A stretch of DNA of 63,310 nucleotides, the filler included, from Asterionella formosa (Eukaryota), in assembly GCA_002256025.1 (NCBI GenBank). It is 14 parts of 14 records of this genome, joined end to end, with 100 filler letters (N's around TTAATTAATTAA, not from the genome) between each part and the next. Parts side by side here need not be neighbours in the genome. Positions count along the whole stretch, not along the records: positions 1,148 to 18,002 come from NKIB01004711.1; positions 18,103 to 19,149 come from NKIB01004712.1; positions 19,250 to 20,296 come from NKIB01004713.1; positions 20,397 to 21,442 come from NKIB01004714.1; positions 21,543 to 22,588 come from NKIB01004715.1; positions 22,689 to 23,734 come from NKIB01004716.1; positions 23,835 to 24,880 come from NKIB01004717.1; positions 24,981 to 26,026 come from NKIB01004718.1; 6 more parts are not named here. One strand, given 5' to 3'. Positions 1,867 to 52,394 of the stretch are shown here, in pieces. The notes under the pieces are model-generated. The model searched no databases. It saw nothing but the letters and a program-made list of their open reading frames with translations, and had not been told where the DNA came from. Numbering within the stretch: position 1 is the first letter of the stretch; the number at the start of each line of letters is the position of its first letter. The position numbers were made by a program, and so were the translations under genes.

Positions 1867-2704
1867 TACCAGTAAAAAAATGCATTGACCCACTGGGAAA
1901 AATTTCGAACTGCATTGACCCACTGACGGTATAAAAAACACGTTTTGTTTTGAAAAATCATTCATTCTCTATTTCTTAAGCTCCAGAATGTATCTTGTGC
2001 ATATACCGGATGGAGTCATACTCTTAGTTCTCAATCGATTGGACGTCGATCTTTCGTTAATTTAGGTCAAAAGTGGTGATCGGAAAAAAAGTGAAAAGCA
2101 CGGATTATCCCAAGTTTGGAGTTCTCATCTTACATTGTGTACAACGATAAATATAAATTTCTCGCATTTTGTGTCTTATCCATAACCTTGTCAATAATAA
2201 TTCAGTAAATAAAAATTGATGAAACCCGGTGCAGCCGTGTAATACCAGTATCTATGTAGGCAGACCATTATAATTGGTACGGAGTACCTTGTACCTGGTC
2301 TATAAATATGTACCAATGGCTGTGCAGAAAACTCATACTGTACATCTATTGTACCTGGTACCAGGTACCGGTATCATGTATGGAGCATCATGCATTTTAT
2401 GTCTTTTCGCTTTGAACCAAACAGGATAATCCGTGTTCACCAACGAATATAAAATTACTTTCAGGTATGGTAAAAATTTCATATACTGCATTGACCCACT
2501 GAGACTGAATTTTACGTCTAGATGTATATAAATATCTTCTGAACCATAAGATATGTTCAATTTAACTAGGAAAAGGATGCTAATGTACCGACGCCTTATG
2601 CCATCAATACTTCCGAACAGATTTTAGAGAGGGGATCTAAGTGTTAGTCGAATTAATCAAACGAATGGGATAAAACAGTGGGTCAATGCAGTTTTTTACT
2701 GGTA
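1867..2704. mobile_element. Non-autonomous TA-flanked DNA transposon (MITE, Tc1/mariner-like), ~0.84 kb
   Basis: Left end TACCAGTAAAAAAATGCATTGACCCACTG (1867-1895) and right end CAGTGGGTCAATGCAGTTTTTTACTGGTA (2676-2704) are inverted at 28/29 positions, including the flanking TA. Internal copies of ACTGCATTGACCCACTGA lie at ~1909-1926 and ~2485-2502. Confidence 0.8.
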
Positions 2705-3495
2705 GTAGTCTTTCGTAAACTCGTCTTTATACTTGGCAAAAAAGTGTGAAGTATTAAAAAATACTTTTTGTATGACAATCGAGTAAAATAAAACAAGTGA
2801 GGTTTGAGGGTAAAAAATCTTCATATAAAGATTTAAAAAGTATACTGAAAGACAACATTATGAGTCAAAATGGATAAAATTAAATGGCTTAGATATCCAT
2901 ATCTGTATGTTTTACTTCAGAACTGATTAAATGATAGCTATCCCTACCGGTAGCATTCTATCGACTACAATAAAGTTCATACTCGTCGGCTGTTTCGAAT
3001 TTTATCATTTAAGAAACTTCGATAATTCTAATCAGAAGAAGGAGTTATTAAACGTTGATGGGCAATGTAGTACAGGTTGTGAATTGCCAAGCTAAGCCCC
3101 TACTTGGCAGGAGTCTGCCTACAACTCGTCATCTAGTCGTAGTGGCTTGGGAGGCGTGCGAAGGTTTACTACAGAACGAGGGGTGCCCAGCAACAATCTG
3201 GCCGTCACTCGTTCTTTTATACTTGATTTTTTGGATCATGCATTGTTACGGTTTTTGTTTCTTCCTTCTCGTGATGCCACGCGCGACTAGAGGAAAATTA
3301 CCGGTACTGCTATTATGTGTGACGACGAGGATGGATGATTTTTTCACATGTACGTGATGAAACTCTGCCTTTTTGCTTGATGCCGTTTTTCTCGAGAAGT
3401 CAAAAGCGCACGGTAATATTGTCAGTAGGAGTATTGCTATGACTTAGTTGACTTATGTTTCATTAATGAGCAACAGCAATGATCACGGCGAAAAA

Positions 3496-4572
3496 ATGGC
3501 AACATTTCTGAGAGTCCTCGTCGCTGTTCTCGCTATTTATCCAGCAAAAGGATTCAATCTTCCCACGCCACGATTTTCTCAACAAAGATTCCACCTGACG
3601 AAAGGCACTAGAAGTAATGCAGCCACGTCCCTTTCCAGCGCCTCTATTTATGGCAGAGGTGCCGAGATTTGGCCAGAATGCAACGAAGATCCAGTGCAAC
3701 TCAAGGATTCCTTTCCTGATGGGATTATCCCTGAATCTGCTCTGGAAGCATTGCAGATACCGCGACCTCCCATTCCACAACCTTCTGGAAATCTTTTTCA
3801 AAGGATTCTAGCACGAAGATTACTAGGAGTTGACGTTACTCCCACAGTCATTGCCTCTCTCTTGTTTCTTCGTGGTCTCGTGAGACCCCTAGATATTATG
3901 ACTGTGATTGCTATAACCGGCTATTGGACTATCCTGCAAAGATATGCACAATCGACTCGTGCGGACGGGCTTACGCCAGCCCTACCCGCCCTTCCACCAC
4001 AAGGCCATGTTCCTGATCTTGTGTCCAATCCCTTGGGAATTTCATTCACCAATTCCAATGATTATGATCAGTGGCTCAAGATGAGTGCTCTACTTAGCCT
4101 CGTTCTACCCATTGGGCTTATTGTAAAACACTTGGCCGAGCAACAACTACTTGCTGCTAAACTCTTCGCTGGGCCCCTCTTTTTGCTTTGTTGTCAAGCC
4201 ATGAGCGAATCAATCGCAAGAAAAACTATGGTAAGAAGAGAAATTTGCGTTTGTTACCTTCGTTCGCATGAGCTTACCCGAACAAAACAACCTGTTCCCT
4301 CCTAGGCTCCACTTCCCATTCGCATCTTGATCCCTGTCTTGTACAATGCTGTCCGGCTGGTACCCCTATGGGCATGCGCATCATTTGGAATCATGGGAAG
4401 ACTAGGACGACTGGTAGCTGCCGCCAATTTGGGATACTGGGCTCTTAATCTCTTTGTTTTTTTGATACCACTTGCGACTATGAGGTACTTGCGGGCTCAT
4501 TTTTATGGCGTTGAAGCTGAAGAAGTTAAGTTGCGAAGTGGTTTTGATGCGTCTGCTGGTTTGTTGCCATGA
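3496..4572 (+). CDS. Probable plastid-targeted multi-pass membrane protein (~333 aa), similar to an uncharacterised plant membrane protein family; exons 3496-4230 and 4306-4572
   Basis: A 75-nt GTAAG...TAG intron (4231-4305) joins ORFs 3448..4305 and 4327..4572 in frame (..RKTM|APLPIRILIPVLYNAVRL..). The N-terminus is a hydrophobic signal ending AKG|F, followed by an S/T/R-rich transit-like stretch. There are several hydrophobic helices, including GRLVAAANLGYWALNLFVFLIP. Confidence 0.8.
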
Positions 4573-6351: not shown

Positions 6352-7855
6352 TTCATAGTAAATATTGTTGTATCGCTAAATTGAAAATTTTCGTTGGTAC
6401 AAAATGTAAGATTACCCCGTTATAGTGGTCTGAGCAGCAGTTCATAGTGGTCTGAAGCAGTTTTTGACTGGTAGCAACTTATGGGAAGTGTACTGGTACA
6501 TATTCCTGTATTGTTCTTTACCGGTTCATTTTCCACTCCCGCATATGTACAAATTTGCTCATCACTTTGGCAGCCAATTTTTCCATTCCCAGTTTAAAGC
6601 GTCCAGCCGCCACATGAAGTTCTGCCTTATACCTTTTATTTTGCGCGATTGCCAATAGCGCCGACTGGTGAGCCATCTGATCAAGATTGATGCCGACCAC
6701 TTACTTGTGGTGCTAAAGGAGGNNNNNNNNNNNNNNNNNNNNNNNNNNNNNNNNNNNNNNNNNNNNNNNNNNNNNNNNNNNNNNNNNNNNNNNNNNNNNN
6801 NNNNNNNNNNNNNNNNNNNNNNNNNNNNNNNNNNNNNNNNNNNNNNNGTTACTTGTGGTGCTAAAGGAAGTTTGATGGTCTAAGTGGCAGCACTTTTTTG
6901 TTTGTATTTGTCCCCTCCACCCTTCTCACAGGTTAGTTGTGTTTGTTGAGTCTCGTGCTGTTCTGGTCTATTGGTTAGATTATTGTTTCTCACACTGCTG
7001 ATTTCATCTGAATTACATGTAACTGGTGTCAAATTGGATGATGTAGCCAGTAGTGGTGGCTCTGGTTCCAAAGGTAAGTGTACTGCTAGTTTCAATTCAT
7101 TGTTCTGCTGGGGAACAATCCAATAGCACTAAAGAATTTAACCCCCTTACGGGCTAAAGCACTAGATCTTTGTTGTCGTTATTCAATTTCTTCAAAGGGA
7201 ACTTCACCATGTCTTTTGTTAGCCATTGTGCCAACTTTGTCTGCTACTAATTTAGCTAATAGTAGCACTGTATGGTAAAAAAGCTCCTCCATTGTTAGCC
7301 TTTTTGTAGCTTCTAGTTCTCTGCCGTGTTGTTGAGAACAAGATTTACTAAATCCTTATCTAGAGTCTTATAAACAACTCTGTACTTTGCTTATAAATAA
7401 CTCTGTACTTTGCTTGAGGTTTGGTGCTTCTTCGGTTAATTATACTAAGTTGTGAGATCCGAAAATATGAAAATATGGTATGGTGTGATGCTCATCAGAG
7501 CATTTCAGGATGCATATATGTTGACAGTACAAAATCACTAATTGCTATGATGTGAACTAGTGTTCATACATGTATAAATTGTTATGTCGCCCACAATCTC
7601 GCCATAATAATAATCCGACCGAAGAAAAGTGTGAAAGGAAGCTATATTAATTTGAGTATAAAACATAATGAATATCGTATATCAAGATGAAATGTCGGCC
7701 CAGCTCAACGATGTAATTTATTTTCTTCCGATGTGCATGACTTGTTCATAGTAAATATTGTCGTATCGCTAAAATTGAAAAACTTTGTAGCACAAAATGT
7801 ACGTAATAGTCGTCTAAAGCAGTTCATAGTGGTCCTCTTACGCAGTTTTTGACTG
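6352..7855 (+). repeat. Pair of diverged ~115-bp direct repeats (6352-6470 and 7745-7855)
   Basis: Both copies read TTCATAGTAAATATTGTyGTATCGCTAAA...CAAAATGTA...GCAGTTCATAGTGGTC...GCAGTTTTTGACTG. Confidence 0.75.
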
Positions 7856-8054
7856 TTACCACCTGGTACCAGGTACCAAGATATTCGACGCGAAGATGAT
7901 ATGAATTGCTACTTCACATGATATTGGTATTAATATTAAGCGGCGGCGCAGCATGAAAAAATGGAATTTTTATCGCGCACAGTTCACAAAGATGGTTCCC
8001 TTTTTCTAAATCACACCATTATCACCATCGTTGCCACCAAATCAAGGAAAAATA

Positions 8055-11362: not shown

Positions 11363-13010
11363 TGGTGCCTTGCGATCATGAGATCTAAACTCCCCTCGAG
11401 CAGAGAATTTTGCCTCTATATTTGTAATCCTGATAATTATGTATATCGAGGGAAAGTTGGAACGCAACGTACTCTGAAGAATTCATGCAGACTCCAGTAC
11501 TAACTGCATGTATTTTTCAGCGTTCATTCCTTTGCCAATACACATGGTTGGTGTGGCTTATATTATTGAGTTACAGCTCAGCTCAGGACAACACTCACAT
11601 TCGTTTACAATTTCATGTTATCAAAATTGTATCCACTTCGTCTGAGGATTGTATTGTCGCCACCAGTTTAGATGATCTCTTGATGTAGGAATTATCAAGC
11701 TTGTTTCTCCTTGAGTAATAATAATCAAGAGTTGACATTCTTTCATTCTATCTTCCTATAGTGGCGCGATGATCGAGGTTATATAAGTCGTAGAGATTTA
11801 GTGGAGGGTGGTGGGATTCAACTGGGATACACTAACAGGTACCGGTAATTGGTGACTTTATCGTTGCATACCGGTAGTTAGTCTATATTCATATCTATGT
11901 ATTTGCTATACTTGTTGAGAAATTAAAGATTTATTTGCTTCTTTTAAATGTATGAAAATTGACTGACATAGAAAATCAAGACAATAACATAATGTATACA
12001 ATAAACTTTGGCACTCTTGCAGCACAGAGGAAAGCAACAACAGTGAAAGTATTATTAATTTGGTCCTGTCTGACCTATAGTAATTTGTACTTCACAACAA
12101 ACATGTAAATAAATAGTACAAGTCCTATTATGCTTATACAAAATCATAGATCCGTCTGCAAGGACTACCAGTAGAATACTGATTCATTCTGATTCTTACT
12201 CTTAATGTAGAAACTAACTCAATCATATATACGGGTATTATGTTGCTGAAAGGTCACGTACTCCTTCCTGTCTGATTGGTATCTTCTTACGTAGGTCTTA
12301 CCTGAAGTATTATTGTGATGGTTGCTTTACTAGGAGATCAGGTATTATGAAAAGAGCTGATAGGTGTTGACTACCTGTATCTACTAGGTACCTGGTCTAA
12401 TAATATTGTACCTGCAAGTTGCAGTGAATCTGCTATATCTAGCAGTGCTACACACAACAATGTGCAGGAAATCATGTATCAATTTTTGATATCCATGAAA
12501 AAACCGGCTGACTTGTTGTTCCAATTTACATTTAGCTTTAATCTGATTTAGCCTGAAATATTGAGACAAATCTGTTTTGCTTATTCTGCCATTTGCATCT
12601 ATTGGTTTTCCTAAACGTAGCACTGTTTTGTTTAAATTAGCTTTGCTTAAAGTACTGGTAGTTTTGCTTGAAGCAAGAAGCAAAATTACTGCAACCGGTA
12701 CCAGTATGTGATATTACTCAGAGTACACCTGACTGTGTGCCATGCGCATGATATTGCTCTTGAAAATGCGCCTACATATGATTTACACCAATATCAATGA
12801 GAAGGAATACTCCTGGTGGTGTCCCAGGTACTCCGGAGTAACAACTGCTGAAGGCAAGACACACTGGAGGTGGTGGTCTCATGCCATCTGGTAAACATGT
12901 ACTCGGCTGGGATGGCACTCATAGGGTGACCTTCTTGCAGCACTAGAGGCGCCACTCATACGGTAAACCTCCATGCGCCACCCAGCCTCGAACGCATGTT
13001 TACGAGAAGG

Positions 13011-17798: not shown

Positions 17799-17993
17799 GT
17801 ACCGGTACCGGTAATGTCATTGTGAACTTCTCGACGTAGTACCTGGTACCTGGTACCAGTACCGGTAAGCGTTATCATGCTTTGTTATGTGTAGTCTACA
17901 TAAACATTGGGGTACCAGTACCAGGTACCTGGCACCTGGTATCACATTGAATGTACAACACAAATTACGGGTACCAGGTACCAGGTACCGGTA
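17799..17993. repeat. Cluster of chained TA-CC(W)GG-TA palindromic units
   Basis: 17840-17867 reads TA-CCTGG-TA-CCTGG-TA-CCAG-TA-CCGG-TA. 17966-17993 reads TA-CGGG-TA-CCAGG-TA-CCAGG-TA-CCGG-TA. Confidence 0.85.
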
Positions 17994-18473
17994 GTTTAGT
18001 CTNNNNNNNNNNNNNNNNNNNNNNNNNNNNNNNNNNNNNNNNNNNNTTAATTAATTAANNNNNNNNNNNNNNNNNNNNNNNNNNNNNNNNNNNNNNNNNN
18101 NNATTTAGACCGTTCAATTGCCGCAAGGGTTTTGGTAGCAAATTGTTTAAGCCCCTTTTTTGGTTGGGAGCTCTTCATGTGTACCGGTACATCATATGAC
18201 AATAACAATATATCATATATATATACAGAGTACCAGTAGCAGGTAGTAAGTGATATACTGGGGGTAGTCGGAGTAGTAAACTAGCAACAGAACACCATAT
18301 GTACAGGACTGTTGCTACTGCAGTGGGACAGTAAATCATCATAGTTTTAGGATCATATGATCGTAAAACTAAAAACCAATAGAACACCATATGTAGGACC
18401 AGGCTGACGAGTTACTACCGGTACCAGGTAGTACGTCTACATCTTTTGTCAGCACCTTTAAGTAGCACTTACG

Positions 18474-19016
18474 GTTATGGTGGTACTATGTTTTTCCCTA
18501 TTATTTTCTGTCGCAGCTCTGTAAAGGCTGCGATGTACAGTTATGGTGGTACTATGTTTTTCCCTATTATTTTCTGTCGCAGCTCCGTAGAGAGGCTGTG
18601 AAAGTCAAAGCGCTGCCCCCCCCCCCACCCATTACTGTGCGTTGCAACGGCCCGCAACAGGGTGGCTGTGGTTATGGAGCAGGGGGTAGAACGCCACAAC
18701 ATGACGAAGTCCCAAGGATCATGAATGGGAAGAAAACTTTGCTGCATTCTGGTGGTACCATTGGACTTGGGAAACAGCGAGGAAGGTTGTATCCCGCCGT
18801 ATCAAACGGTTTCGAATAAGAGGAGTTGGAACGAAGAGATGTGACAAGAACTGCCCTGACACTTCTGTCCGACTTGGTCGATGGATGTCTCCCGCCTATT
18901 TGTGACTTCCTACGCAACACAACAAAACTTGCCAAAACGACGAATCAAACGGGTTTCGAATATGAGGAGTGGTTGGAACGAAGAGACTTGTCATAAACAT
19001 GACACTTCTGTCCGAC
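18474..19016 (+). repeat. Two local tandem duplications (18474-18530/18540-18598 and ~18801-18873/~18944-19016)
   Basis: GTTATGGTGGTACTATGTTTTTCCCTATTATTTTCTGTCGCAGCTC occurs twice with a 66-nt period. ATCAAACGG..TTCGAATA..GAG..TTGGAACGAAGAGA...GACACTTCTGTCCGACT also occurs twice. Confidence 0.8.
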
Positions 19017-19249: not shown

Positions 19250-20296
19250 AATGGTCCGTTGCCTCAAACTTGCTTGGCGTGTGCGTGCACACACTGTCGA
19301 CTTGTTTTCAATGGTATGTTGTTCTTGTATTCACTGTTGAACTTGTCCGCATCTTTGTTACCATCAATAGAGCGACGCAGACGAAGTGGGTCTCTTCATT
19401 GTTGTTTGCTCCTGGAAAAGTCGGTGTCCGTGTCATCCTCATCAATAGAGAGACAAGTTCTTTCGTTGGAAAAATTGGTACCGTATCATCATTCGCTCGT
19501 TCGAGCCACTGTCCGTTGCCTCAAACCTGATTAGCGTGTGAGTACCGGTATGTGCACTGTCGACTTTAGTACATTACAGGCGGAGTGACTTCGCAACTAA
19601 ATTGCGTGATATAATAATATACCCTGTAGCACGATGCAGAATACCGGTACAGTTGGTTCCCAATCATCTCATCATGATTGATAAGATGACACTGTGATAT
19701 CATGATAAGGTTACATCGATGTTTACATCACCAAAGTATGATACGTAATATTGAATTAAGTACATCACATAGCTATGATACATTGATCATAAAACTATGA
19801 TGATTTTATCAAATGTATATGATATAATTTTGATCAAAATATGATCATGTAAAAATAGTACAATGACAATAAAATACGATAAAATATCTACACAAGTGTT
19901 GTTAAGACATCATAGAAAATAAATCAAGCAATCATAAAGTATGTTAATTAATATATGTGTTTGTTGTTTAATGTATACAGTTGAAGTCAACACTTAATAT
20001 GATAGTATTTTACAGTGGATAGGATCTAAGTATACGGATGCGTTGATACCGGTATGTACATCACTATAATATGATTTGTGATACGGATTGATGAATATCA
20101 CATACCGGTATCCTCAACAACCAGCCATCACGTTCATTGTCGTGTCGTCTTTCCTTGTTTTAGCTATACATGTGCCAGCATGTGTATTGTGTAAACACTA
20201 CGCTGGCGGAACATGCATATTACACTGTGCTCTGTTCAACAATTACTACACTCGGTTACCATCACACCAGTTCCACCTCCACAGGCGCCGCAATAA
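19250..20296. repeat. ~1-kb dispersed repeat, homologous in reverse orientation to ~58660-59700
   Basis: Spurious ORFs pair up between the copies (19259..19534 vs 59395..59751; 20088..20348 vs 58657..58887) and nucleotide similarity is collinear. An internal unit beginning CCGTTGCCTCAAAC recurs at ~19256 and ~19513. Confidence 0.88.
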
Positions 20297-24980: not shown

Positions 24981-25252
24981 ATATTTGCCATGCTGCCAGC
25001 TCGTCTGACACATATATGTTGATTGTATGATAGGGTATATAAACATTGAGCGATGGAGAACGTTTATGTATATATTTATTGAATTCGAAAAGGAATCTAT
25101 GTATGTATGCGCAAATTTCCAGTGATTCAAATATTTCAATTGGAATCACGTCATTCAAAATTAACTCATAAAAATTCTTAGTTCCAGGGAATTTCGGCAA
25201 CCTTAAGCAATATTTTAATTTTTGCCTAGGGGTTCAAATGCAGGAACCTTAA
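24981..25252 (-). mobile_element. Terminus of a young TTAA-targeting DNA transposon (Kolobok-like end)
   Basis: 25025-25252 is the reverse complement of 63083-63310, with about 2 mismatches in 228 nt. Identity ends exactly at TTAA|GGTTCCTGCATTTGAACCCC. Confidence 0.7.
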
Positions 25253-25373
25253 ACCCAAGTTGTTTTTTCCTGTAGGCCTCTGGCATGTGTCTACTGGATC
25301 ATTATAATGCTGGCACGGTATTGATCTGAAAATACTAGTGGAAGCACCGTGTTACAACAGTATTTGCCATTAG

Positions 25374-25418
25374 AAAAATTAAACCCCCGGGGTTTAATTT
25401 TTTGGTTTAATTAAACCA
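25374..25418. repeat. Two abutting perfect palindromes
   Basis: AAAAATTAAACCCC-C-GGGGTTTAATTTTT (25374-25402) is followed immediately by TGGTTTAATTAAACCA (25403-25418). Confidence 0.8.
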
Positions 25419-25707
25419 TAACGGTACGCACGATCATCGTAGTAGGAATATACACTGTACGAGTACATAAAACTAGCTATTACACTCTACTACTGGTACC
25501 ACCTGGTACCTGGTACCGGTCGTTCACACAAATTAAACCCCATCCTCATTCATGTACCGGTACCAGGTACCAGGGTACCAGGTACTCGGTATTTCGGTAT
25601 GCAGCAGCGGTAAGGAGAGGAAGGTGTGACTGATGGGACACCAACAGCAGGTGAAGGAGGGAAGTATGAGAAGCGTGGAAAAATGGGTAGAATGTAGGAG
25701 ATCCTTG

Positions 25708-26367: not shown

Positions 26368-27172
26368 CTATCGCCGGTGAGGGTTAGGGTTTGGGGTAGG
26401 GTTAATACCACTCGGGTCGGTAGGGTTAGGGGTAGGGTTAGGGTTAAGCACCCTCAGTGGTTGGGCGGTGCCATCGAGGGCGGGAGAGACCGGGAAAGGT
26501 GTACAGGCATCAGGATCAGGGAGAAGGGGGATAGTGGATGCTGTGGTTGTACCGGGCACCCTCAGTGATGGAATGGGGTGATGCAGGAGGGGAGCAATGG
26601 GTAGTTGGTTGAGCTCAGGCGGTGAGAGAATTTCAAGGAGCTGCTGGAGAGCAGCTTTGTGGGTTGCAGTGAGTGGTGCAACGGGAGACCGAGTGGTGGG
26701 ATGTAACAAGGCATAGGCAATGTCCTGCAAACTGGTTGTGATGAGGTCAGTGGATGAATTACAGGGTAAGTGGACTTTGGTTGGAAACCACGAGACAGTA
26801 TCGCAGATTCTGATTGAACGTGTGTCCCACATCCAGATGCGGTAGCAGCGATAGGAATCCACAGCAGGGCCGACATACCAACCATCGAGAGCATGCGGAG
26901 CCCATGTGGTGCGGTGTTGGGGCTTGGCATGAACAAGGACCCGACAACCGGGTGGAGCAAGGGGGACACGGTTGTAATCATAGGTTCCATTGACCTGTGC
27001 CCAAGCAGACAGTTTGGGGTTGATGCGTGAGCCACGGAGGAGGTTAAGAGTAAGTTCGGCTTGAACTAGTAGTTGGTCCCACAAGTGGAGAGGAAAGTGT
27101 TTGTCGACACTGCATAGACCGGCAATGAAATGATTTTGAAAGGTGCGAATTGCACGTTCAGCGGCATTGCGA
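26368..27172 (-). mobile_element. Ty1/copia (diatom CoDi-type) integrase C-terminal fragment
   Basis: RNAAERAIRTFQNHFIAGLCSVDKHFPLHLWDQLLVQAELTLNLLRGSRINPKLSA...PLAPPGCRVLVH...TWAPHALDGWYVGPAVDSYRCY, followed by a Pro-rich linker with LRV motifs. Confidence 0.88.
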
Positions 27173-30916: not shown

Positions 30917-31274
30917 GGTGGATGGAGCAAAATAAGGCTCAAAATAACAATAAATGCCTATAGCAGTGCAGATCATTCGATCATTGATATTTACTACCGG
31001 TACCGGTATATTTACTTTTTCATTATGGCTACAGCACAGTTATCTGCAGCTGTAGCGGTATAAAATGACCAGGTACCGGTATTTATAAATGCATGATTAA
31101 TTATACTCACGGTAAATATTCTAGCTACATAATACATAGAGAATACTTTAGTCTCTTCATGCTTGGCAGGCTTATTTGAAGCCCATTGTTGGACTATGAC
31201 GGTAACAGGTACACAGCAACAGGTATACGCCGGAGTACATACCAGGTATTGTTTATTCATCGTAGACTTTTCTG

Positions 31275-31936
31275 GCAAGTTGCGGTCATTTTGCTTAAAT
31301 AAACAATTTGATATGGGATAAAGAAAGCTAAAGTTTCAGTTTCAGCACAATTACCGAAACTTGCTTGATGTTGGGCAGCAGTATGATATCGTTGGTATGA
31401 CCGGTTGTGTTGGTACCTGATTCCATCTACCGGTTACTCCGAATATCCTACCAAGATTCCTGTAATTGTTTAATTCCTGTAAGTACTTTCCCCTTCAGAG
31501 CTGCTCAAATCCTACTTTGGAATCTCAGCTCATTGTTAATGTAGCTGCCGCTGGCATCCGTTGCAAGCTTTCTCCCTTTCTTCAACACTCAGTGGCATAA
31601 ACCAGCAAGTTGCGGTAATTGTGCTGCTACTGAATGTTTAGCTACCAGGTACCGGTACATATTATTTTTGATACTCGTTGTCACACCATGCTCAATGCAT
31701 CGTTCTTGGTTTCAAAAAAGCAGTCATTATCCATTGACCAGGTACCAGGTACCAGGTACCATTCTTGCAACTTGCAGGTACCAGTGTACCTTTGGAAGGT
31801 CCGGTACCCGATACCGGTATTTTAGCAAATATTGTCCTAAGTAAAACCAGTGTTGATCAGACCTTCCTGGTACCAGCAAGTTGCGGTCATTTTGCTTGAA
31901 CGAACATTTCAATCTGGGATTAAGAAAGCTAAGTTT
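31275..31936. mobile_element. Cluster of copies/fragments of a ~96-bp MITE (31275-31364 near full length; partial copies at ~31602-31625 and 31871-31936)
   Basis: GCAAGTTGCGGTmATTTTGCTT...GGGAT.AAGAAAGCTAA...CAGCACAATTACCGAAACTTGC. Same family as 50684-50779. Confidence 0.78.
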
Positions 31937-32374
31937 GGTTGACTCCTATGCTGGCTTGATACCACCAGGTACCTGGTACATGGTAGGAATACCAATTCAG
32001 ATGTGTATACCGGTAGGGTTATTGTTATATCATATACTGTTACATCAGAAGCAACTCAATAATGAGAGAACTCGACTACCGGTAACCCTTATTGTATACT
32101 TTGGTGTCGACTTCGAGAACATTTTTGCACACAAGGATTAAGTAATAAGCTCATATATTCAACAAATACTACTACTTCTAGTTAGCTTCTTCACCAGGTA
32201 CCAGGGTTCCAGGGGTACTGTGTAGGGTGCCTGATGGTACCGGAGTAGCTGGGACTGATTCCATAATGGCGATGTGCTGTGCTGTCTACAATGCATATCA
32301 TATTCGATCCCTTGTAACTTTCTAGCTATGGTACGCATAGTATGTGTATGTATTGTGGCCATTTTATCTTTGGT

Positions 32375-38459: not shown

Positions 38460-39960
38460 AAATTTATGGTAATCGGAGTTCTGTACCAGTTGGCAGATTC
38501 ATACTGGATTTGGTTCTTCCCCACAGAAACCACCTCCTTGAATACATACCGTACTTCTCTTGTTCTGGATTAACAAGAGATGAGGATCTTCTTATATATG
38601 TTGAAAAAAGTCAGGAACCAAATGTTCCTGAGAAGGACATTGAATAAACTAAATGCATTCCATTACCAGGACATTGATGAAGCCATTGATTTTGAATGGA
38701 TGTAACAGAATCCAACAACACAGCAATAGTTTCATACTAGTAAGCAAACCAAGAAATAACAATTCAGTTAGTGAAACAAATGATTCCACATATATTGTCC
38801 ACCTTTGTAAATGATGTTTTCCCTTCACAGACCATGATTGAATTGTAGTCAAATACTTATACAGTTGTTCAAATCTTATGATAAGCATTGAGGAGAGCTT
38901 ACGCTAAAAATCCACGTTACTTTAGGTACTAGTGGTGCTCATGTGTGAAGATATTCCTACACAACATCTATTTTTACAAGTCATGTGATAATTTGAGTTG
39001 CATAGTTGGAGTGATGACAGTTTTTCTTTTTTATTTCATTTTCATTTTCATTCTAGTATGCGCCCTTCCTGTTTATATTGTTACTCAGTCATCAGTTTAT
39101 TTCCGACGTCTTTGCGGACACCATTGCAATGGTGTTTCCTGTGTAACTAAATTTTTTGGAAGAACATTGCCCCGACATTTGAGTCTCACAATCAAAATTG
39201 TAGCAACCAATTTTTTTCTGTATATGGTGGTGGTAACTGTCAACATACAAATTACCAAGCAAGATCAAACCGCTTCCTCCCTAAAGGAGCTACTATGATG
39301 ATGCCACTCCCACAGGAATTTGAACATCTGAAGAACCATTCACTTAACATGCATCCTATCGAATTGTAACTTATTGTATTCCTAAATGAGAACTATCTTT
39401 CCCCCATTTGCCATGTACTTCTTCGATCATCTTAGCTATGAAACGGCTATTCAAGGCAAAGGCAATGAAATATTTTGAGGGAATGTATCAAGATCCATCG
39501 CACCAAACCTTGAAGAAACGCATGGATGTTTCATTTCTAGCACCATTGACTGGTGGTGACTTTTTGACAAAACAAATACAAATTGATTATAACTCAGATC
39601 TTGGCATTCCACGCCTTTAATTTCGATCCAGTACAGCTCATGGTATCACAAATGTGCGATTCCGGCATTATGCAACATTTTTTGTATCACAGAAAATTAA
39701 AATACAGAACTTGTAGACAACAAGTATACGATGAAGTAACATCTGCGAAAAGGTTTGAAAATTTTCCAGCATCAGAAAATGGAGCCTTGTTGAAGACAGG
39801 GTGTTTATTTTTTGCCCTATAGCAGTGGCTGTTTACAACTAATGACGATTCACCTATTGATAAACAAATGAAACACTCCAAACATTCCTTTCTATTGATA
39901 ATATTAAACTTATCATTACAATGGAGGAGATAAGTTGATGCCTGGCAGCTAGTATCTCGG
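38460..39960 (+). pseudogene. Highly decayed, internally deleted second copy of the Plavaka-type element at ~52870-54490
   Basis: Shared blocks include AACCAAATGTTCCTGAGAAG, GATTTTGAATGGAT, peptide KRLFKAKAMKY vs KWLFKAKAMKY, and PASENGALLKTGCLF vs PASENGVLKTGCLF. Confidence 0.75.
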
Positions 39961-41329
39961 TCGTCTGCCAGATTTAATTTTATATATATATAATATTTAT
40001 AATTTACATTAAAAACTGCGTATTATTAACAATCAACGTTTATAATAATTACAATATTTCTATATTTATCATCGTCTCATCATCATCACACATCAGCCGG
40101 GTTTCTGAAATCAGCAAAATGATGATATTGTAAAATAGAAACCCGGCTGTTCCATCCAATAATGTCAATAAACCTTTCCCATCAGGTCATGAAATTATTG
40201 GAAAAAAACCTTGGCTGTTACATTGTCCAAGAAACCCAATAGACCTTTCCTTTCAGATCGTATATCTTTATTGATATTCTTGGAGATAGACAAAGGATCC
40301 GGATATTATCAAATCTTGCAAATTGACATTACTAGAATAAAATAAATCCCGGCATTTTTCAAATTAAGTCAATAAAGGAATAATGACATCATTGGAAAAT
40401 AATGTAGCCCTACGTTCTTTCCAGTAATGTCAATATACTTTAATTGAGTAATAATCATAGAGTAAGGCATTTTCTTAGTAGCCCAGACATGACATAAGAA
40501 ATGACAATTTTTGAGAGAATTCAAGGTTAATTTACATTATTAGCGAAGAATTATGTGTTTACTTTTTCGGAGCTCCAATCATAATGCTGTTTGACATTGG
40601 CAATGGTTCCAGTAAGGTCAAATGTTCCCTAATAATGTCAACATTGGCTTGTTGTGTACATTACCAGTTACCGGGTGCTTTGATTCTAAATTATAGTATC
40701 ATACATACAGCAAGCAAGATTTCTGAAGTAACAAATTATCACGTTTGTTACCATTTCCTTAGCTCAAGGCAGAGGAAGATTGGAGCATACCTCTGGTATC
40801 ATCGTTCAATGGTGAACAGGAACAGTAAGTAGTATGGTGATGACATGTATTGAACAATGTATGACCAATACGTATGTATGTGGCCAAACTTGAGTGAATG
40901 GATTTATGGGAGGCTGCCTATTGCTACTAGCAGTATGTATTTCCAACAGGGCAGGTAATAAATTTATAGAGCACACATTAGTAATCAACTAGCTCACCCA
41001 GCCATCAGCGCACACTCTCTCTTTTCGTAGTTCATCTATAATACTCCTATAATAAACGTGTAAAGATTGTATTACATAATATATTTATGCACTCCACGGA
41101 GTCTAATATCGTACATGGTCAGGGTTTGGGTCGACGTTTTAAAATTAACATATTGGCATTTGGTGGGGTCAAACCGTGTTTTTCTCCTGTTCAGGGTCAC
41201 AGCGGTTGCAAATTTTTTTTAGTGCGTCACAGCAGTATTTTACTGGTACGGTACCGGTATAATTGATTTCAGAGGAATTGAAACTGATGCATTGCTGCAT
41301 GGTATTCACCAAACACTGATGCAACAGTT

Positions 41330-43894: not shown

Positions 43895-44096
43895 GGTATT
43901 TGAAAATATTTCATATAAATTTAGGAAAGAGATGGATTGTCCCCTATTTCGATGTATTGTCCCCCTAACCCTAGACTCTTCCATGGTACCAGGTAGCATC
44001 TGATTATAAGGGTTAGTGGGACGGACGATTTATCGAAATGAAGGGGGAACAAATATCTTTTTCCTAAATTTATCATGTACCGGTGTAAAAAAATAC
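43895..44096. mobile_element. ~200-bp imperfect foldback / MITE
   Basis: ATAAATTTAGGAAAGAGAT (43915-43933) and ATCTTTTTCCTAAATTTAT (44055-44073) are inverted at 18/19 positions. Inner pairs are ATTTCGAT/ATCGAAAT and CTAACCCT/AGGGTTAG. Confidence 0.62.
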
Positions 44097-44850
44097 NNNN
44101 NNNNNNNNNNNNNNNNNNNNNNNNNNNNNNNNNNNNNNNNTTAATTAATTAANNNNNNNNNNNNNNNNNNNNNNNNNNNNNNNNNNNNNNNNNNNNGTGC
44201 TAATGCCGGTGCTGGTACCTGGTATATTCCAGGAAATGCATTTCTACTGCCCTCGTTCAATATTTTAATGCGCCGGTTTGCATTTCAGTGAACAAGCCCA
44301 AACTCGTACTAAAAGTTCGAACACGTATCGCAATCCTGTACAGAATTTCTGACCATTATCGGCTGGTTATCAACAGGTCGTACAAGGTACACCTGGGACC
44401 TGGTAATACTGGTATACCGGTACATACCGGTACTATCAATTAGCAGGTTGCCTCTAATCTTTAACAACACCAAATTCTGTCTTAACAAGAAGTGGTTGTA
44501 CGTATAACATATAGTACGGTACCTGGTAATGCCCTATTGGAAAATTCATTTTTAGTATAGTTTTTCAATTTTTGGCATTCATTATACCGGTATATCCACG
44601 ATGCTTCATTTTATCCAAGACCCAGATCAGACATGCCAAACTATATTTTATGCCAACAAAAAACAGTTTTGTACCCAATAATTTAAAAAAACAGTATAAT
44701 ACCATTGTAAAGAACAGGAAGTAATAGTAACAGTAATAAATAGTGTACGTCCCATAAAAATATATTTCCCCTTCCGTGAACAAGAAACGAAAGCAGCAGA
44801 ATCCCTTAACAACATCTCTCAACAAACAAATTGGAGACCAAGCTGAAATA

Positions 44851-45711: not shown

Positions 45712-45750
<39 letters not shown>
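45712..45750. repeat. (TGA)13 microsatellite
   Basis: Perfect trinucleotide run. Confidence 0.95.
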
Positions 45751-46713
45751 GCGACGTTCCTACATTACATATTGGCGACTTGGATTTTTTGGATAAAAGG
45801 CGGCGGACGAGAGGCGGAGGATATCAACAATTATATTTTTTTTTACCTACCGGTAGGTACCAGGTAACAGGTACCAGTATCAAACATAAAACGGAAAACA
45901 TAAATTTTTTTATGTATGTGTAGTATGTATGACAGACAAGGTTGATTGGCCATGACAGCACCACCATGTTGATGTACGCATATACCACATACTTGTGACT
46001 GAATTTGACTAATTTTACTTAAGGAAAATGAAGAGAATCCTTCATATGTACCGGTAATTGACCTGCCTAAATTTTATCGGTTCTACAGGATGGAGCGGAT
46101 TTTTCTAAAATATGTATTAAGCAATACCACGACAACTATTTCTAGCAAGGAAGAATAATGATTCAACATGACACAAGATGTTACTCCAATCTACGTATTA
46201 CATACTCCTTATAATATAATGTTCAGTTGTGATGGCCTTCTTGTTGTCAATCATTGCTGCTGCAGTTGTGTACGCATGATGGCTCCAATATCAACGTCAA
46301 AGATTCTGACAGTCTTGTCGTCACTTGCTGAAACCACCACAGCATTCTCACTATCCACAAAGCACACGACCATATCATTAATCATANNNNNNNNNNNNNN
46401 NNNNNNNNNNNNNNNNNNNNNNNNNNNNNNTTAATTAATTAANNNNNNNNNNNNNNNNNNNNNNNNNNNNNNNNNNNNNNNNNNNNTCATTTGTCAATAA
46501 GTAAACATCTCCAGTCATTTGTCAATAAATGACGAGATGTTTTTGGGTCTTGGTTTCTAATCACTACTAAGAATATTGATTCTCGATTCGTTGGATTCCA
46601 TATATTTTATCACTCCTTTTCAGGCCGAAGTGCTGAAAACAACCAATAATGAATGGTTCTATATCAAGTATGATTTGAATATTCACATGCTACTGGTACC
46701 TGCTGAAGTATCA

Positions 46714-47722
46714 AACTAGAAGTATTACATATTTGTTGAATATATGAGCTTATTAGTTAATCTTTGTGTGCAACTCGATCTCCAAGGTTGAAACTAGCTA
46801 CAGTATTCAAATAGGTGTTAGTCGAGTTCTCTGCTGATAGAGTTCTGATGTAATCTATGTAAACCAAACCCAATTGGTGTGTCTGAAGTTGAGCGAGATT
46901 GCTCACTCTCCCACACCAAGGGAAAACCTTTCACCTAGCTATGAAAAGGTTTGATATGACAAATATTAATTCGTTCAGCAGTAGGTATAGTTTGGTGATA
47001 TCATGCATGGGATATATTGAATCCTGCTATACAATGGAAATATCCTGCATTTACAAAAAAGGCAGTATCCAGACTGTAATTATCCTGTCAATAACAACTG
47101 ATATTCATGTGATGACTGACATGAGACATATTCAATGTTTCATCATCTATGTATAATAATAGCATTGAAATTTTCGCACATGTGCAATCTGTTCAGCATT
47201 CCGCTGGTTTTTATTAGACACATAGGCTCTAGCTGACCAATAGGAGGATTAGTGACCACTCAAATTTCTTGGGTAGATTCATAAAAGTTGGCAGGTATCA
47301 TGGCCCTTGGCACACTACCCTAACCAGACATCGTCATAGGATTGCCCCATGGATTTGTAGAAAACATGCATGCAAGAAACATGAACAGGGTTACCGGCTC
47401 TGAATTCCATAACCAAAATGTTAAATGTCCTGTTAGGTATAAGAGAAAAGGTCTGAGTCTTGATGTGAAGTATGCTGTGATCCTTGATCAAAGAGACCAA
47501 GAAAACTTGAAAGACATCGACATTGTTAATTCTAATTTGAATCTTTTTTGATTTCAAAGTGAAGAATCTAACTAGAAGTAGTAGTATTTGTTGAATATAT
47601 GAGCTTATCAGTTAATCTTTGTGTGCAACTCAATCTCCTAGGTTGAAACTACAGTATTCAAATAGATTTTAGTCGAGTTCTCTCATGATAGAGTTCTGAT
47701 ATAATCTATGTAGACCCAACCC
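46714..47722 (+). repeat. Pair of ~155-bp direct repeats (46714-46871 and 47570-47722)
   Basis: Both copies read AACTAGAAGTA...TATTTGTTGAATATATGAGCTTAT.AGTTAATCTTTGTGTGCAACTC...GATAGAGTTCTGAT.TAATCTATGTA. Confidence 0.85.
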
Positions 47723-47732
47723 GATACATATT

Positions 47733-49187
47733 GGGCGCGCACTGATATTAAAAAATTATTATATCATGTGTGTATTATAACACAAATTATTTTGGCGATT
47801 TGATACAAAAAAACGTCGTCGCACTCTGATAATCAAGATATTTTAGATTAGTCATCGGAAATTTTATATAAATTTAACTTTAATTTATAACAGTTATAGT
47901 TTCATAGCGATGGATCCTCTTGCGTGTTATGCAGCCTCTTGTTCATTGTCCACACGAATTCCATAATTTCACCAGTGCCAGTCACTGACCAGCATATCGG
48001 CTTACCTCTCCTCATTTCCTGATGAAAAGGATGATGCCATGAGCGAACTTAAAACATGATACAGATACATAGAAGTTTCAGCTTTTCTCAAGAAGCAAGC
48101 AAGCCTTTGATCGTCAAATCAGGCCAACTGAACTTTCACAACGAGGTATGATTGCTCTCCAAGAGCGAATGAAGACAGTCAGAGGAACTTGCATCGTTTG
48201 TTTGCCCATGCCATGGACTGAGCCCATACTATTCCCGCTTTTTAAAGACTAGTTCTTATCAATCCCCATAGGAATGGAGGTGAAATCAATCAAGTATTTT
48301 ATGAAATTAAATGTCAATTTCATCAAAGGCACGAGCGATTGGCAGCAAGCCCAACTTATTCCCGACTTTCAACGACAAGATCGTATCAATTCCCATGGGG
48401 ACAGAGGTGAAATCAATCCAATCTTGATGACATTGAAAATAAATTTCAACAGCTGCGAGAGGAATTGGCAGCAAATCCAAATGTATTGCAGCTTGTAGAT
48501 GGAGATGATCATGAGGTACCAGTGGAGAAATTCAGTGGACTGCGTTTTGTCTGGAAAATAAGTTTAATGCTGCAGACGACATTGTACAAAGGATGCTACA
48601 GTAACAAAGGTCGTAGTGAACACAATATCTTCATTTACAAGACAGCAAATGTATTTTAGTTTATGGCAGTGTTGATGATGACGTGACATGATCATTAAAG
48701 CTAACAAACAAATGTATAGAATGATATAATGTGCTCTGTTTCTTCATTTCACCTTATAATCATCAATCAGTGCAGAAATTGCACATGAATTAATAGTGGC
48801 TAGAAGACATGATCACAGCAAAATTGGAAGCAGACGATTGATGATACCTTTAGGATGATTGATGTGTATATGTATATGCATATCGACATCTTTTTTTGGT
48901 AAGAGCAAGCCATTTCGGGTATGAGCGAGCAAGTCTTGAAATATTCCAGGAAATTATATGTAGTCATTCATGCCTAAACATCTTCTTATATAATGCACTG
49001 TTATTTATGACTGTAAAGAATTTGTGTTTGTGTTGACCAAATTTGGTAAACCTGGTAGGCACCCCGAGGTGCTTAACAGGTTTACCAAATTTGGTCAACA
49101 CAAACACAAAATTTGGGGTTATGGGTACAACGATTTGTGTTAAAATACACATGTTAAAAAATAATTTTTTAATATCAGAGCGCCCCC
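47733..49187. mobile_element. Non-autonomous DNA transposon with ~55-bp TIRs and a 3-bp TSD (PIF/Harbinger-like), 1455 bp
   Basis: The left end is GGGCGCGCACTGATATTAAAAAATTATT...AACACAAAT. The right end (reverse complement) is GGGGGCGCTCTGATATTAAAAAATTATT...AACACAAAT. ATT flanks both ends (47730-47732 and 49188-49190). Confidence 0.8.
49021..49110. repeat. 90-nt near-perfect hairpin
   Basis: Perfect 34-bp arms at 49021-49054 and 49077-49110, then one mismatch, 8 more pairs (one G-T) and a 4-nt loop CCGA. Confidence 0.93.
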
Positions 49188-49311
49188 ATTAGCTATATAC
49201 AGCGATCCTACTAGCACTGGTAAGCACCCCCTCTCACCCTGGAGGGCGATGCATATTTACAGCCGCATAGTCAAATCAGAACTCACTTGCTAACCAATCT
49301 CTACAATACAT

Positions 49312-49623
49312 GCAATGAGCTACAAACATATGAAAGAATCAATAGAAACAACAAGAAAGGAGCTTGATGAAAATGAATGAAGCGCAACAGCATCCATCAT
49401 CCAATTGAAGAGCTCATTTTTCAATGTCCTGGCATCGGAATCGGGTCTGCATCCGGGCTTTCAACTACACAGTAATGACAGCGTAGGCAATGAGCTACAA
49501 ACATATGAAAGAATCAACAGGAACAACAAGAAACTCAAGGAGCTTGATGAAACTGAATGGAATGCAGCAACTTGCATCATTCAATTGAAGAGCGCATTTG
49601 TCGATGTCCTGGCATTGGAATTG
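49312..49623 (+). repeat. Tandem duplication, period 175 bp
   Basis: GCAATGAGCTACAAACATATGAAAGAATCAA...CAATTGAAGAGC.CATTT.TC.ATGTCCTGGCAT occurs at 49312 and 49487. Confidence 0.85.
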
Positions 49624-50683
49624 CCCAGATTAGGTACCGGTACCTGGAAGGCCCGGTTGCGCACATTTTATGTGCACATATTCAGTTTCGACTACCAATG
49701 ACTCGTCCCATGCCTACCAGATGAGATTGGCTGGCTTTCCATTCCAAGCTCTCTTAAGTAAATTTCTATAATGCTAATTCATCAATCATTAAATCCAAGT
49801 CATGCTCTGATCATCGAAATCGTGTTCAGCCACCTACTACTACTGGTAATGGTATTCAGCAATTGGAAGACGGTTTACTAATGGAATTCACCAATCAGTA
49901 ACTTCTAGTCGTAGTCAGCAATTTCTAGTCATTGTCAGCACATGCATTCCAGTCGTTTTCAGCAACTTCTAGTCATTGTCAGCAGATTTCTAATCATATG
50001 TAGTCACCAACTGGATCAGTAATCATAAACAAACGAGTCATTTTGAAAATGTCAATGAATTATAAATTTTTATTGTTATATAGAGAGAATCAACAAAAAT
50101 TGGTATGATCTACAGATCAATGTAGTGTAGAATGTCGCATATTGTGAAAGTGTTAAATCTTGTCGTAACTTCATCGTTTTGAATCGTGCATCCTTTAAAG
50201 TGCATGACGAAATGCGTCATCAGCAACTTCAATTTTCGTTGTCAATATTATTTGATTGTAGTGTGTTGTATACTGTGTAGTTACGGTGTGATGGAAACGG
50301 TCTGTCTGGATCGGATTTGGGTGTATGAACATCATCAATGCCTTAATCAATTTAATGATGCTGTTGGGTGGATGTCAGTCATTTTGGTCTATCTCCATGA
50401 GTTTCTTGTCAATTTCTGTGGTTCTTGCAACTGCTTGTAGTGTGTTGTATAGTACTGTGCCAGTATTGATAATTAATTCTACCCCCAGTACTACCATTTT
50501 TTGTCGTAGTGAAAGCTAGTGCACTAGTTAACTATCATGATGCATGTACAAAGCATGCACTGTGTGTGAGTGGGCGGTGCCACCGTTGCTGGTACCTGGT
50601 ACCAGGTACCGGTACCTCGTGTCACCAGGGGCGATGCTGTTACAATGCATGAAGTACCCTGGTACCGGTTACTACGGTATGTA

Positions 50684-50779
50684 CCAGCAAGTTGCGGTAA
50701 TTTTGCTTAAACTAACAATTTAATATGGGATAAAGAAAGCTAAACTTTTAGTTTCAGCAAAATTAACGCAACTTGCAGG
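50684..50779. mobile_element. Complete 96-bp MITE with TA target duplication and CCAG.../...CAGG ends
   Basis: TA|CCAGCAAGTTGCGGTAATTTTGCT...AGCAAAATTAACGCAACTTGCAGG|TA, a 24-bp TIR with 2 mismatches. Other copies lie at 31275-31936. Confidence 0.85.
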
Positions 50780-52261
50780 TACCAGCACCTGGTGTTGCCG
50801 GATTTTGCTAGCTTCGTTATGTGTGATGCTGATTCAACTGGTCTGGTGTTTATACCGGGTAAGAAGCAGGCAATGAAATAACAAGGTACAGTATATTGAA
50901 AATGAAATTTGAATTTAATATAGTAAGTATTTATGTTATTATTTAGTAGTATATGCATTTATCTAGCTTAACACGGCTGTAGTTGTGGATGCCCACCACC
51001 ACTGCAACCTTTCAACATTTGGTTGACGAGAATGTGAGTAACAGTCTTATCCTGACCATATGTCTCATAGATTTAATACAGGGCTACTACATGTGCCATG
51101 TACCCACTCAAACTAGCTAGAGTTGCTACTGCATCCCAGACAACCTTGCGCTGCCAATAGTAGATGCATATTTCCTCATCCTGCTCCCTGCCTGCCCTGC
51201 TGCTTGTAAATAGTAGCCTTTCTGGTCTTTTGTTCTGTGATTCCAACTTCCCATTCTTACCAAAGCACAAATATAATTTTGGTGTCTTGGAAGATTACTT
51301 TCATTATCAGGATCCACATCCATGTTTGCTTGTTTGTCCGCAATACCTGCTTGATTGTTGGTTTGTTGGTTCCTAGAGCAAGCTGTGTGACGTGGACCTA
51401 TGGTAGATTGCTTGGCTGGGTAGCCTACACATGTGGCTATTTAAATAGTTACAAAAAACATAGCAAATGTTGGCTATTCCACAAGCTCTACTAAAGTAGA
51501 ACTTCAGCTAGCTAAATCCCCAATGTCTTGCGCATCATCATGGGTACTCTGGCTAGGTGACCAGAAAGGTTCACAATGACATACAGGGCTCACATCATCA
51601 TTTTTCCAAGCCCAGCTCAACCAAGCGATCAAAAATAGTTTTAAAAAACTTTTTAGCTCACTTGTTTTAATCGTTCAACTTTGTTACTTCTGAACTTGTT
51701 TAGGATGGAAGAAGTGGCTGGTGTGAGCAAGCGAATTGGAATTGGAATTGGAACTGGGACTGGAACTGCAGTTTCTCGTCTCCTTCCCATGATGAGGGAA
51801 GTAGAGCGAGTCGAAAGCAGGAAGGAACGAACGAGACGAGACGAGACGAGCAATTCAATTGACGAAAACTTACATTATTTGTTTGGCAAAAAACACTGTT
51901 CGTCGTATTCTATGAGCAAAACCGTGGCAAAGCAAAAATTGAATAGAGTCAAGGCAAGCAAAAGGCAACCACATCAAATCGAAACGGCCACGATTCAAGT
52001 TGATATATATGGACAATGTACAATAAATAGCTCGAAATACTTCAGTCTAATAGGCTCCCCTATTTTATTTCTGCTATATCTATACTGTACTAACCGGTAT
52101 GGCATTGAACTTTAGGTCTCTTCTCCAGATTGGCTATGACTGATGATATTTTTGGACTGCTTGTAGATATGTATACGTCATATACATACATCTTTCTACC
52201 GTTTACATATTGACAGTATATGGTATTTATTTATTGGCACATAGACCATCATATTCTATAT

Positions 52262-52394
52262 CAGGTACCTGGTACCGGTACCTGATACCAGGCACATGGT
52301 ATCAGCCTACCCACGGTACCTGGTACCAGGTACCGGTAACTGAATTTGTGTGCAGCGATATACATACTGGTACCTGGTACCTGGTACCAGTACC
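52262..52394. repeat. Dense cluster of chained TA-CC(W)GG-TA units
   Basis: GGTACCTGGTACCGGTACC..., GGTACCTGGTACCAGGTACCGGTA and TACTGGTACCTGGTACCTGGTACCAGTA all occur within ~130 bp. Confidence 0.85.

Follow-up and report, generated by a model that had tools for sequence, protein, structure and literature searches.

Chained TA-flanked CC(W)GG units in Asterionella formosa DNA as probable stacked excision footprints of Tc1/mariner-type transposons

Non-coding DNA of the diatom Asterionella formosa carries short units of the form TA-x-TA, in which x is CCGG, CCAGG, CCTGG, CCAG or CTGG and successive units can be chained into arrays by sharing a TA. We analysed these units in a window of 63,310 bases (assembly GCA_002256025.1), the whole stretch of DNA considered here, which consists of unlinked scaffolds, many of ~1.05 kb and three of ~16.8 kb, separated by linkers of the form N44-TTAATTAATTAA-N44. 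We consider it reasonably probable that the units are stacked excision footprints of Tc1/mariner-type elements, a reading that draws on the enrichment of the unit words, on two element families with matching ends, on the chaining of units and on indels between near-identical copies.

Word counts in the window were compared with Markov models of orders 0 to 3. TACCGGTA occurs 41 times against 0.31–2.65 expected, TACCAGGTA 16 times against 0.14–0.48 and TACCTGGTA 14 times against 0.14–0.58 (TACCWGGTA, 30 times against ~1); the shorter forms TACCAGTA and TACTGGTA occur 10 and 9 times, against 0.7–1.9 and 0.7–2.1. An unbiased ranking of 6-mers and 8-mers places the unit words and their overlaps at the head of the over-represented list, and GGTACC is found 74 times, compared with 3–26 times for each of eleven other palindromic hexamers. 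The enrichment of the CCGG and CCWGG cores is confined to TA...TA flanks: the CCGG, CCAGG and CCTGG cores have these flanks 41, 16 and 14 times, while each of 15 other palindromic flank pairs accounts for 0–2 occurrences. Over-representation of TACCGGTA and TACCWGGTA, which a preliminary description of this DNA had proposed, is thus very large and specific to the TA flanks. That description had also counted CCG and CGG among the unit types; the five types named above are enriched, but CCG and CGG are not enriched on their own (TACCGTA and TACGGTA, 5 each against 1.5–4 expected).

The spectrum of x in the window comprises 40 CCGG, 16 CCAGG, 14 CCTGG, 10 CCAG, 8 CTGG and 1 CCSGG, at an overall density of ~1.5 units per kb; CCATGG is not among the types, in agreement with a count of zero for TACCATGGTA. 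CCAGG and CCTGG are nearly equal in number, at 16:14 in the window and 22:26 in the related metagenome loci described below. Because CCSGG is found only once and CCATGG never, the middle base is A or T, as is position 3 of most of the element tips to which we now turn.

Two non-autonomous element families are TA-flanked, begin with CCAG and end with C(A/T)GG. The first is represented by a 96-bp miniature inverted-repeat transposable element (MITE) at 50684–50779 (plus strand; TA at 50682–50683 and 50780–50781) with the structure TA-CCAGCAAGTTGCGG...CGCAACTTGCAGG-TA, ends CCAG...CAGG, and terminal inverted repeats (TIRs) that read CCAGCAAGTTGCGGTAATTTTGCT and, as reverse complement, CCTGCAAGTTGCGTTAATTTTGCT, matched at 22 of 24 positions. 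This copy is ~90% identical to copies in metagenome loci, and with at least five matches in the window in addition to the metagenome copies, family 1 is dispersed and present in multiple copies, within which no Pfam match was found. Family 2, unrelated to family 1, is represented by an 834-bp element at 1869–2702 (plus strand; TA at 1867–1868 and 2703–2704) with the structure TA-CCAGTAAAAAAATGC...GCAGTTTTTTACTGG-TA, ends CCAG...CTGG, and a TIR, CCAGTAAAAAAATGCATTGACCCACTG, matched at 26 of 27 positions; no open reading frame (ORF) of at least 100 codons lies within it, and a three-unit array (2352–2373) sits inside it. Of 19 occurrences of TACCAGTA, three represent tips of family 2 and are therefore no scars. 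A further element of 288 bp, at 12411–12698 (plus strand), is related to family 1, with left tip CCTGCAAGTTGCAG and a degenerate right tip (reverse complement CCGGTTGCAGTAATTTTGC). All three elements have TA on both sides and differ in the bases beyond, and the flanking TA is presumably a target-site duplication. Scanning the window for additional TIR pairs of the form TA-CC.G...C.GG-TA returned the two families and self-matches of arrays, and nothing else; the TIRs of family 1 (CCWGCAAGTTGCGG...) and family 2 (CCAGTAAAAAAATGC...) matched none of the sequences available for comparison.

Remnants of both families lie close to arrays. Around 31 kb, a decayed family-1 copy (31272–31367; 90% identical to 50687–50776, its tips no longer CCWG or TA-flanked) is followed by a solo left TIR (31602–31626), with an array beginning 17 bp beyond it, by a solo right-TIR remnant (31761–31778) in which ATTCTTGCAACTTGCAGG and then TA stand directly behind the array GGTACCAGGTACCAGGTACC, and by a diverged copy (31873–31965) whose left junction, CCTGG-TA-CCAGCAAG, adjoins a unit; all are on the plus strand. 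The arrays and single units amid these remnants extend over 31643–32084 (31643–31657, 31743–31758, 31812–31819, 31970–31978, 32008–32015 and 32077–32084). For family 2, a right-end remnant on the plus strand (41232–41246 within 41232–41259), GCAGTATTTTACTGG-TA, runs directly into CGG-TA-CCGG-TA of the array 41241–41259, 71 bp upstream of the ATG of an NYN-domain ORF, and a minus-strand tip, CCAGTCAAAAACTGC followed by TA (6457–6471), has a paralogous remnant at 7842–7856, 8 bp from the array 7865–7877. Across the window and 15 metagenome loci, the family-1 TIR core was matched 37 times, ~6 of these by chance; 11 matches have the exact junction TA-CCN-GCAAG, and in six of the 11 a unit stands immediately outside, for example GGTACCAGG-TA-CCAGCAAG. 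Between CC and GCAAG the MITE tips differ by 1–2 bases across 10 copies (CCAGCAAG, CCTGCAAG, CCAAGCAAG and CCTTGCAAG; at the other end CTTGCACAGG), and it looks as if transposition or repair had reshaped the tips themselves as well.

With the five-type set of units, the window holds 90 units in 68 chains, comprising 54 singles, 8 doubles, 4 triples and 2 quadruples; the seven-type definition used in the preliminary description gives 75 chains. All nine arrays cited there as examples are present, although one of them, 7857–7878, contains a single strict unit (7867–7875) with half-units alongside. When 90 scars were placed randomly on 3966 TAs, newly made TAs included, 1.99 ± 1.37 adjacencies between units were expected and the maximum in 2000 runs was 7, compared with 22 seen, so that chaining is ~11 times the level of random TA targeting. 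The chains themselves are closely spaced, with 26 of 57 gaps at most 100 bp long against 6.9 ± 2.4 expected. From these chaining statistics, together with the six of 11 element junctions that adjoin a unit, we infer that a scar is a favoured target.

Arrays in the window mix unit types rather than repeating one, as the preliminary description had remarked: neighbours are of the same type in 6 of 22 cases, against 6.2 expected. Since window neighbours are no more alike than chance would make them, these arrays have not grown by copying the neighbouring unit. This bears on an explanation that we regard as unlikely, in which the units are a palindromic, microsatellite-like sequence, (GGTACC[W])n, grown by slippage or hairpin misalignment; elements would merely land there, and the resemblance between element tips and units would reflect target choice or coincidence. 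Tandem Repeats Finder does report arrays of period 6–8, and elements often adjoin arrays, as such an explanation allows. Yet single units dominate the 68 chains, and the tip bases lie inside the elements of both families, which are unrelated to each other, and remain constant from locus to locus.

To place the arrays in a wider setting, metagenome contigs were scanned with the family-1 TIR, yielding 32 loci. Fifteen of these were rejected as unrelated chance matches, to bacterial-like or other contigs that fall into groups with identical flanks; 14 of them hold no unit at all, and the other (L019) holds 2 units in 20 kb (0.10 per kb). The remaining 17 are eukaryote-like, with a GC content of 0.35–0.53, a family-1 MITE at ~77–94% identity and unit densities of up to 12 per kb; genes near their MITE copies include a ubiquitin-L41 fusion, the V-ATPase c subunit and leucine-rich repeat proteins. 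Counts omit L030 and L027, which are the L010 and L011 loci again; L007 was also left out of the neighbour-type, chain-flank and x-spectrum counts, and L016 out of the latter two. The arrays thus recur outside this assembly, together with the family-1 element, in contigs of several independent metagenome assemblies, and one contig (L003) is base-for-base identical to parts of the window arrays. Many scaffolds here are tiny (~1.05 kb) and unplaced, as might be expected if the arrays were an artefact of sequencing or assembly, but their sharing among independent assemblies and the exact match of L003 leave that explanation with next to no probability.

Three of the metagenome loci (L010, L030 and L016) carry a family-1 MITE and dense arrays, at 8–11 units per kb, in the ribosomal DNA (rDNA) intergenic spacer, ~1.7 kb upstream of the 5' end of the 18S gene. 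They are three versions of one spacer, with the 18S rRNA 5' end closing L030 and L016, and they are 98.7% identical where aligned, or 93–97% by BLAST with gaps counted. Because these versions differ mostly by unit indels, the spacer could be used to tell strains apart at a fine scale.

Indels between near-identical copies consist of x plus TA added at an existing TA, as the excision proposal had anticipated; they are seen in window paralogues, in the rDNA-spacer versions and in the L003 contig. Within the window, the CCGGTA at 20049–20054 belongs to a single unit (20047–20054) that reads GCGTTGA-TA-CCGG-TA-TGTACA and is missing from a paralogue near 58.94 kb (GCGTTGA-TA-TGTACA), a difference that our script classed as a unit; the CCGGTA at 32079–32084, in CGAC-TA-CCGG-TA-AC, is missing from two paralogues, which read CGAC-TA-AC or CGAC-TA-AA. 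L010 and L016 (1277 bp, 98.7% identical) differ by 11 gaps, of which the script classed five as strict units of 6, 6, 7, 7 and 13 nt (CCTGGTA twice, CTGGTA, CCGGTA, and CCGGTA+CCTGGTA). Manual reading of the alignment identified four more gaps as unit-related: of the two TAs in GACAAA-TA-AA-TA, one version has CCGGTA at the first and the other version at the second, and a 7-nt change within an array and a CCGCTA unit are also included. Of the last two gaps, one is an insertion of TATG and the other a tandem duplication of 5 nt. L010 and L030 differ by 5 gaps, one of them unit-like. L003 is 96% identical to window positions 25249–25670 and is without 21 nt (three units) and 9 nt in the arrays, while the 96 nt after these gaps are identical to the window. 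Over six pairwise comparisons with 46 gaps, the script found 6 strict units and 1 unit-like gap, and by manual reading 8 more gaps touch a unit or array.

An alignment of 10 MITE copies places CCAGG-TA-CCGG-TA at the TA of GCT-TA-AAC in L016 only, and units at GC-TA-AATC in the L010/L030/L016 lineage only; being limited to a single copy or lineage, these units are derived gains. Some within-array indels copy the neighbouring unit, CCTGGTA twice among them, as growth by slippage would have it. However, units are also gained at naive TAs that had no earlier unit, and the rDNA-spacer locus in which CCGGTA occupies one TA in one version and a neighbouring TA in another likewise speaks against slippage.

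The preliminary description held that arrays avoid coding DNA, and the counts bear this out: eleven long ATG-initiated ORFs make up 23.9% of bases but contain 1 of the 90 units (binomial p = 6e-10). Open frames of at least 100 codons, covering 50% of bases, contain 20 of the 90. Several units lie 19–180 bp upstream of start codons, and a two-unit array at 30995–31008 lies 19 bp upstream of the ATG of an 800-aa minus-strand ORF. Depletion from ORFs, proximity to start codons and the palindromic form of the units would also suit dimeric transcription-factor sites retained as promoter clusters. We consider this very unlikely: the number and type of units in an array change between copies whose flanks are 96–100% identical, so that units are not conserved relative to their flanks, the gains are exactly anchored at TA, and units occur inside MITEs, other repeats and the rDNA spacer as well. 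No paper on palindromic intergenic GGTACC in diatoms was found.

If the units are excision footprints, elements with the tips 5'-CC(A/T)G...C(A/T)GG-3' would insert at a TA and duplicate it. After staggered cuts at excision, the TA on either side would retain the outermost few bases of the adjoining tip, from which end joining would yield TA-CC+GG-TA or TA-CC(A/T)GG-TA. For a scar made of TA, terminal element bases and TA, the observed types of x agree with tips CCAG/CCTG/CCGG...CTGG/CAGG; from tips CCWG...CWGG, the predicted scars are CC+GG and CC(A/T)GG. The 5-nt form would fit tip overhangs that anneal around a central A/T mismatch, as in the TAC(A/T)GTA of Sleeping Beauty, and less commonly a scar may keep four bases, CCAG or CTGG, from a single tip. 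Every scar would supply one more TA in a G-TA-C context, and re-insertion at or beside old scars, followed by renewed exit, would build mixed and clustered arrays. Selection would keep coding sequence free of scars, and replication slippage probably extends some homogeneous runs. Excision as the maker of the units, the stagger length, the repair route and the target preference are all proposals drawn from sequence comparison. Hairpin (P-nucleotide) footprints of the hAT or Mutator kind were considered and rejected; those would mirror the flank (GGTA-TACC), without element tips.

All of the evidence that links x to the element tips would apply equally if a transposase made the units without a full cycle of insertion and excision, through abortive integration or through cleavage and repair at end-like TAs, and so left micro-insertions. 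Unit number is far above element number, the sequence TA-CC..GG-TA resembles two joined ends, and the uniformity of the scars is unusual, all of which this explanation would accommodate. TIR remnants that adjoin arrays, by contrast, point to real occupancy by elements, and we know of no precedent for transposase-made micro-insertions without transposition; we hold it to be improbable.

Several observations weigh against excision as the source of the units. The window contains ~10 element copies or remnants against 90 units (about 1:9), so that many excisions per resident copy would be needed. An element family with matching tips had been predicted, and two non-autonomous, CCWG-tipped families were found, but the transposase was not: Pfam comparison identified no TA-targeting transposase among 53 ORFs of the window, a 61-kb sample of the genome, or 96 ORFs of 17 loci. 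No site was found with an element in one allele and a scar in the other. Among the TIR-core matches, 26 of 37 have junctions other than TA-CCW-GCAAG, ~6 of these being chance matches, and L011 and L027, 99.6% identical over 1195 bp, show no unit indel. The flanks of chains are themselves unit-like, C occupying position +1 in 53 of 108 where the background is 25%; a C just outside chains fits either a preference for G-TA-C targets or older units that have decayed. Neighbours share a type in 18 of 37 cases in the metagenome loci, against 9.7 expected, and runs of 4–5 identical 7-mers occur there, both of which favour the slippage explanation and indicate that slippage acts too. Further, the scars are far more uniform than those of rice, in which, according to the accessible part of a genome-wide study, only 8 of 94 excisions were perfect and most produced deletions or filler DNA (PMC4423477). 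The rice scars resemble those described here in having been found by comparing close genomes, with excision viewed as a genome-shaping force, and the same part of that study makes no mention of stacking into arrays (PMC4423477).

Contigs of 4 public runs (Logan) were aligned to 46487–63310, and among the alignments listed there was no clean skip of the MITE, either as an empty site or as a scar allele, in a high-copy stretch where the sides of the joints were only 19–30 nt. Array-to-array joints in these contigs (50609 to 52370, 52332 to 52367 and others) have sides of 19–21 nt and may be paralogues or mis-joins. Pfam matches of transposable-element type in the window, to a Copia-type reverse transcriptase (26–775), a retroviral SH3-like piece (26371–27171) and, weakly, Plavaka (54052–54462), were set aside as the source transposase, none being of the TA-targeting kind.

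Further arrays are distributed across the window. The array inside the family-2 element reads TA-CCTGG-TA-CCAGG-TA-CCGG-TA, and the identical 22-mer recurs at 50593–50614, an array of three units lying 70 bp left of the family-1 MITE, and at 52317–52338, in a group of three arrays with 9 units (52266–52392: 52266–52280, 52317–52338 and 52365–52392). A cluster of four arrays, with 11 units in all, spans 17800–17993 (17800–17813, 17840–17867, 17913–17927 and 17972–17993), two arrays occupy 25491–25584 (25491–25515 and 25555–25584), and an interrupted array of three units lies at 45848–45879. On one 1-kb scaffold, units and arrays extend over 44216–44592 (44216, 44407–44432, 44515–44528 and 44585).

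The window also contains repeats of other kinds. Positions 46487–60511 form a high-copy repeat in public runs, with a summed contig depth in one run (X1) of 1.2e5–3.3e6, compared with 874–1893 for 60512–62755; it holds a run of plus-strand ORFs (52721–55385), one of which has the weak match to Plavaka (CACTA/KDZ-type; E = 2.6e-05, below cut-off), and it has a paralogue, 71–77% identical, at 38552–39958. This repeat may be a large DNA transposon, with the arrays at 52266–52392 just upstream of its ORF run. An inverted pair of 228 nt, 99% identical, lies at 25025–25252 and 63083–63310; both copies start directly after TTAA (GGGTTTAA-GGTTCC and GCGTTAA-GGTTCC), the related contig L003 diverges at the start of this repeat, and the pair could represent the terminus of an element that targets TTAA. 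A 90-bp foldback at 49021–49110, whose two arms of 43 nt are 95% complementary and separated by 4 nt, may be a small inverted-repeat element. The Copia-type fragment stands at the window start (RVT_2, E = 4e-34), and a short telomere-like tract (GGTTAG/TAGGGT, 4–5 copies; 26376–26446) lies on a 1-kb scaffold inside the ORF with the retroviral-polymerase SH3-like domain. A 66-bp tandem duplication (18470–18598; 1.9 copies, 93% matched) and a (TGA)13 microsatellite (45712–45750) are ordinary repeats unrelated to the units. The window further encodes a 976-aa ORF with a sterol-sensing domain (SSD)/Patched domain, whose top named relatives are from Synedra, Epithemia, Nitzschia and Seminavis at ~45–51% identity, the first three at ~47–51%, and the public runs that share window DNA are mostly labelled as freshwater, lake or river metagenomes (shares 0.2–0.73); on these grounds we take the source to be a diatom, probably a pennate species of fresh water.

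Excision footprints, although a textbook phenomenon, are as a rule scarce and untidy and escape notice genome-wide; excision of Tc1 and Tc3 involves a two-base stagger, and Stowaway-like MITEs are TA-duplicating, non-autonomous elements mobilised by Tc1/mariner transposases. The families described here resemble Stowaway-like MITEs in their small size (96 bp for family 1, 834 bp for family 2), their TIRs and flanking TAs, their lack of coding capacity and their many copies, often near genes; unlike those, their TIRs match nothing with which they were compared, and their tips vary by 1–2 nt among copies. Arrays of units share with slippage-grown micro- and minisatellites a tandem period of 6–7 nt, length polymorphism between close relatives and, in related loci, some homogeneous runs, but differ from them in the chance-level mixing of types in the window, the prevalence of single units and the gains at lone TAs. 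Tc1/mariner footprints, in the accessible part of one account, consist of the first or last 2–4 transposon bases between duplicated TAs, formed by end joining, and the scar of Sleeping Beauty is TACAGTA or TACTGTA (PMC6943129). As far as that part describes them, the units share with such footprints the duplicated TA around 2–4 end bases and the central A/T alternative that mismatched overhangs predict; they differ in being the top over-represented words of a diatom sequence, very uniform, and chained through shared TAs into mixed arrays, and in that excision is here read from sequence alone.

A literature search of main texts in journals open without subscription found no paper describing such arrays, and TACCGGTA appeared mostly in primers and barcodes. 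Chemistry of this kind has been described before, but nothing in the literature searched describes footprints on such a scale, of such uniformity, chained by way of shared TAs, turning over so fast or hosted by a diatom. More tentatively than we propose the excision reading itself, we suggest that the system may feed itself: scars would mimic abutted ends, restore two TAs in G-TA-C context and draw further insertions, and the resulting arrays, clustered in promoters and the rDNA spacer and outpacing the turnover of their flanks, could form a ledger of transposition and a source of regulatory variation across freshwater and marine diatoms.

If the units are indeed stacked excision footprints, the arrays would give a direct count of past cut-and-paste events and a natural example of scar-guided re-insertion. 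They would also supply high-resolution strain markers and hint at an unusually uniform end-joining repair pathway. For diatoms, ecologically dominant algae whose DNA transposons have been little studied, they would represent rapidly evolving variation close to promoters and in the rDNA spacer.

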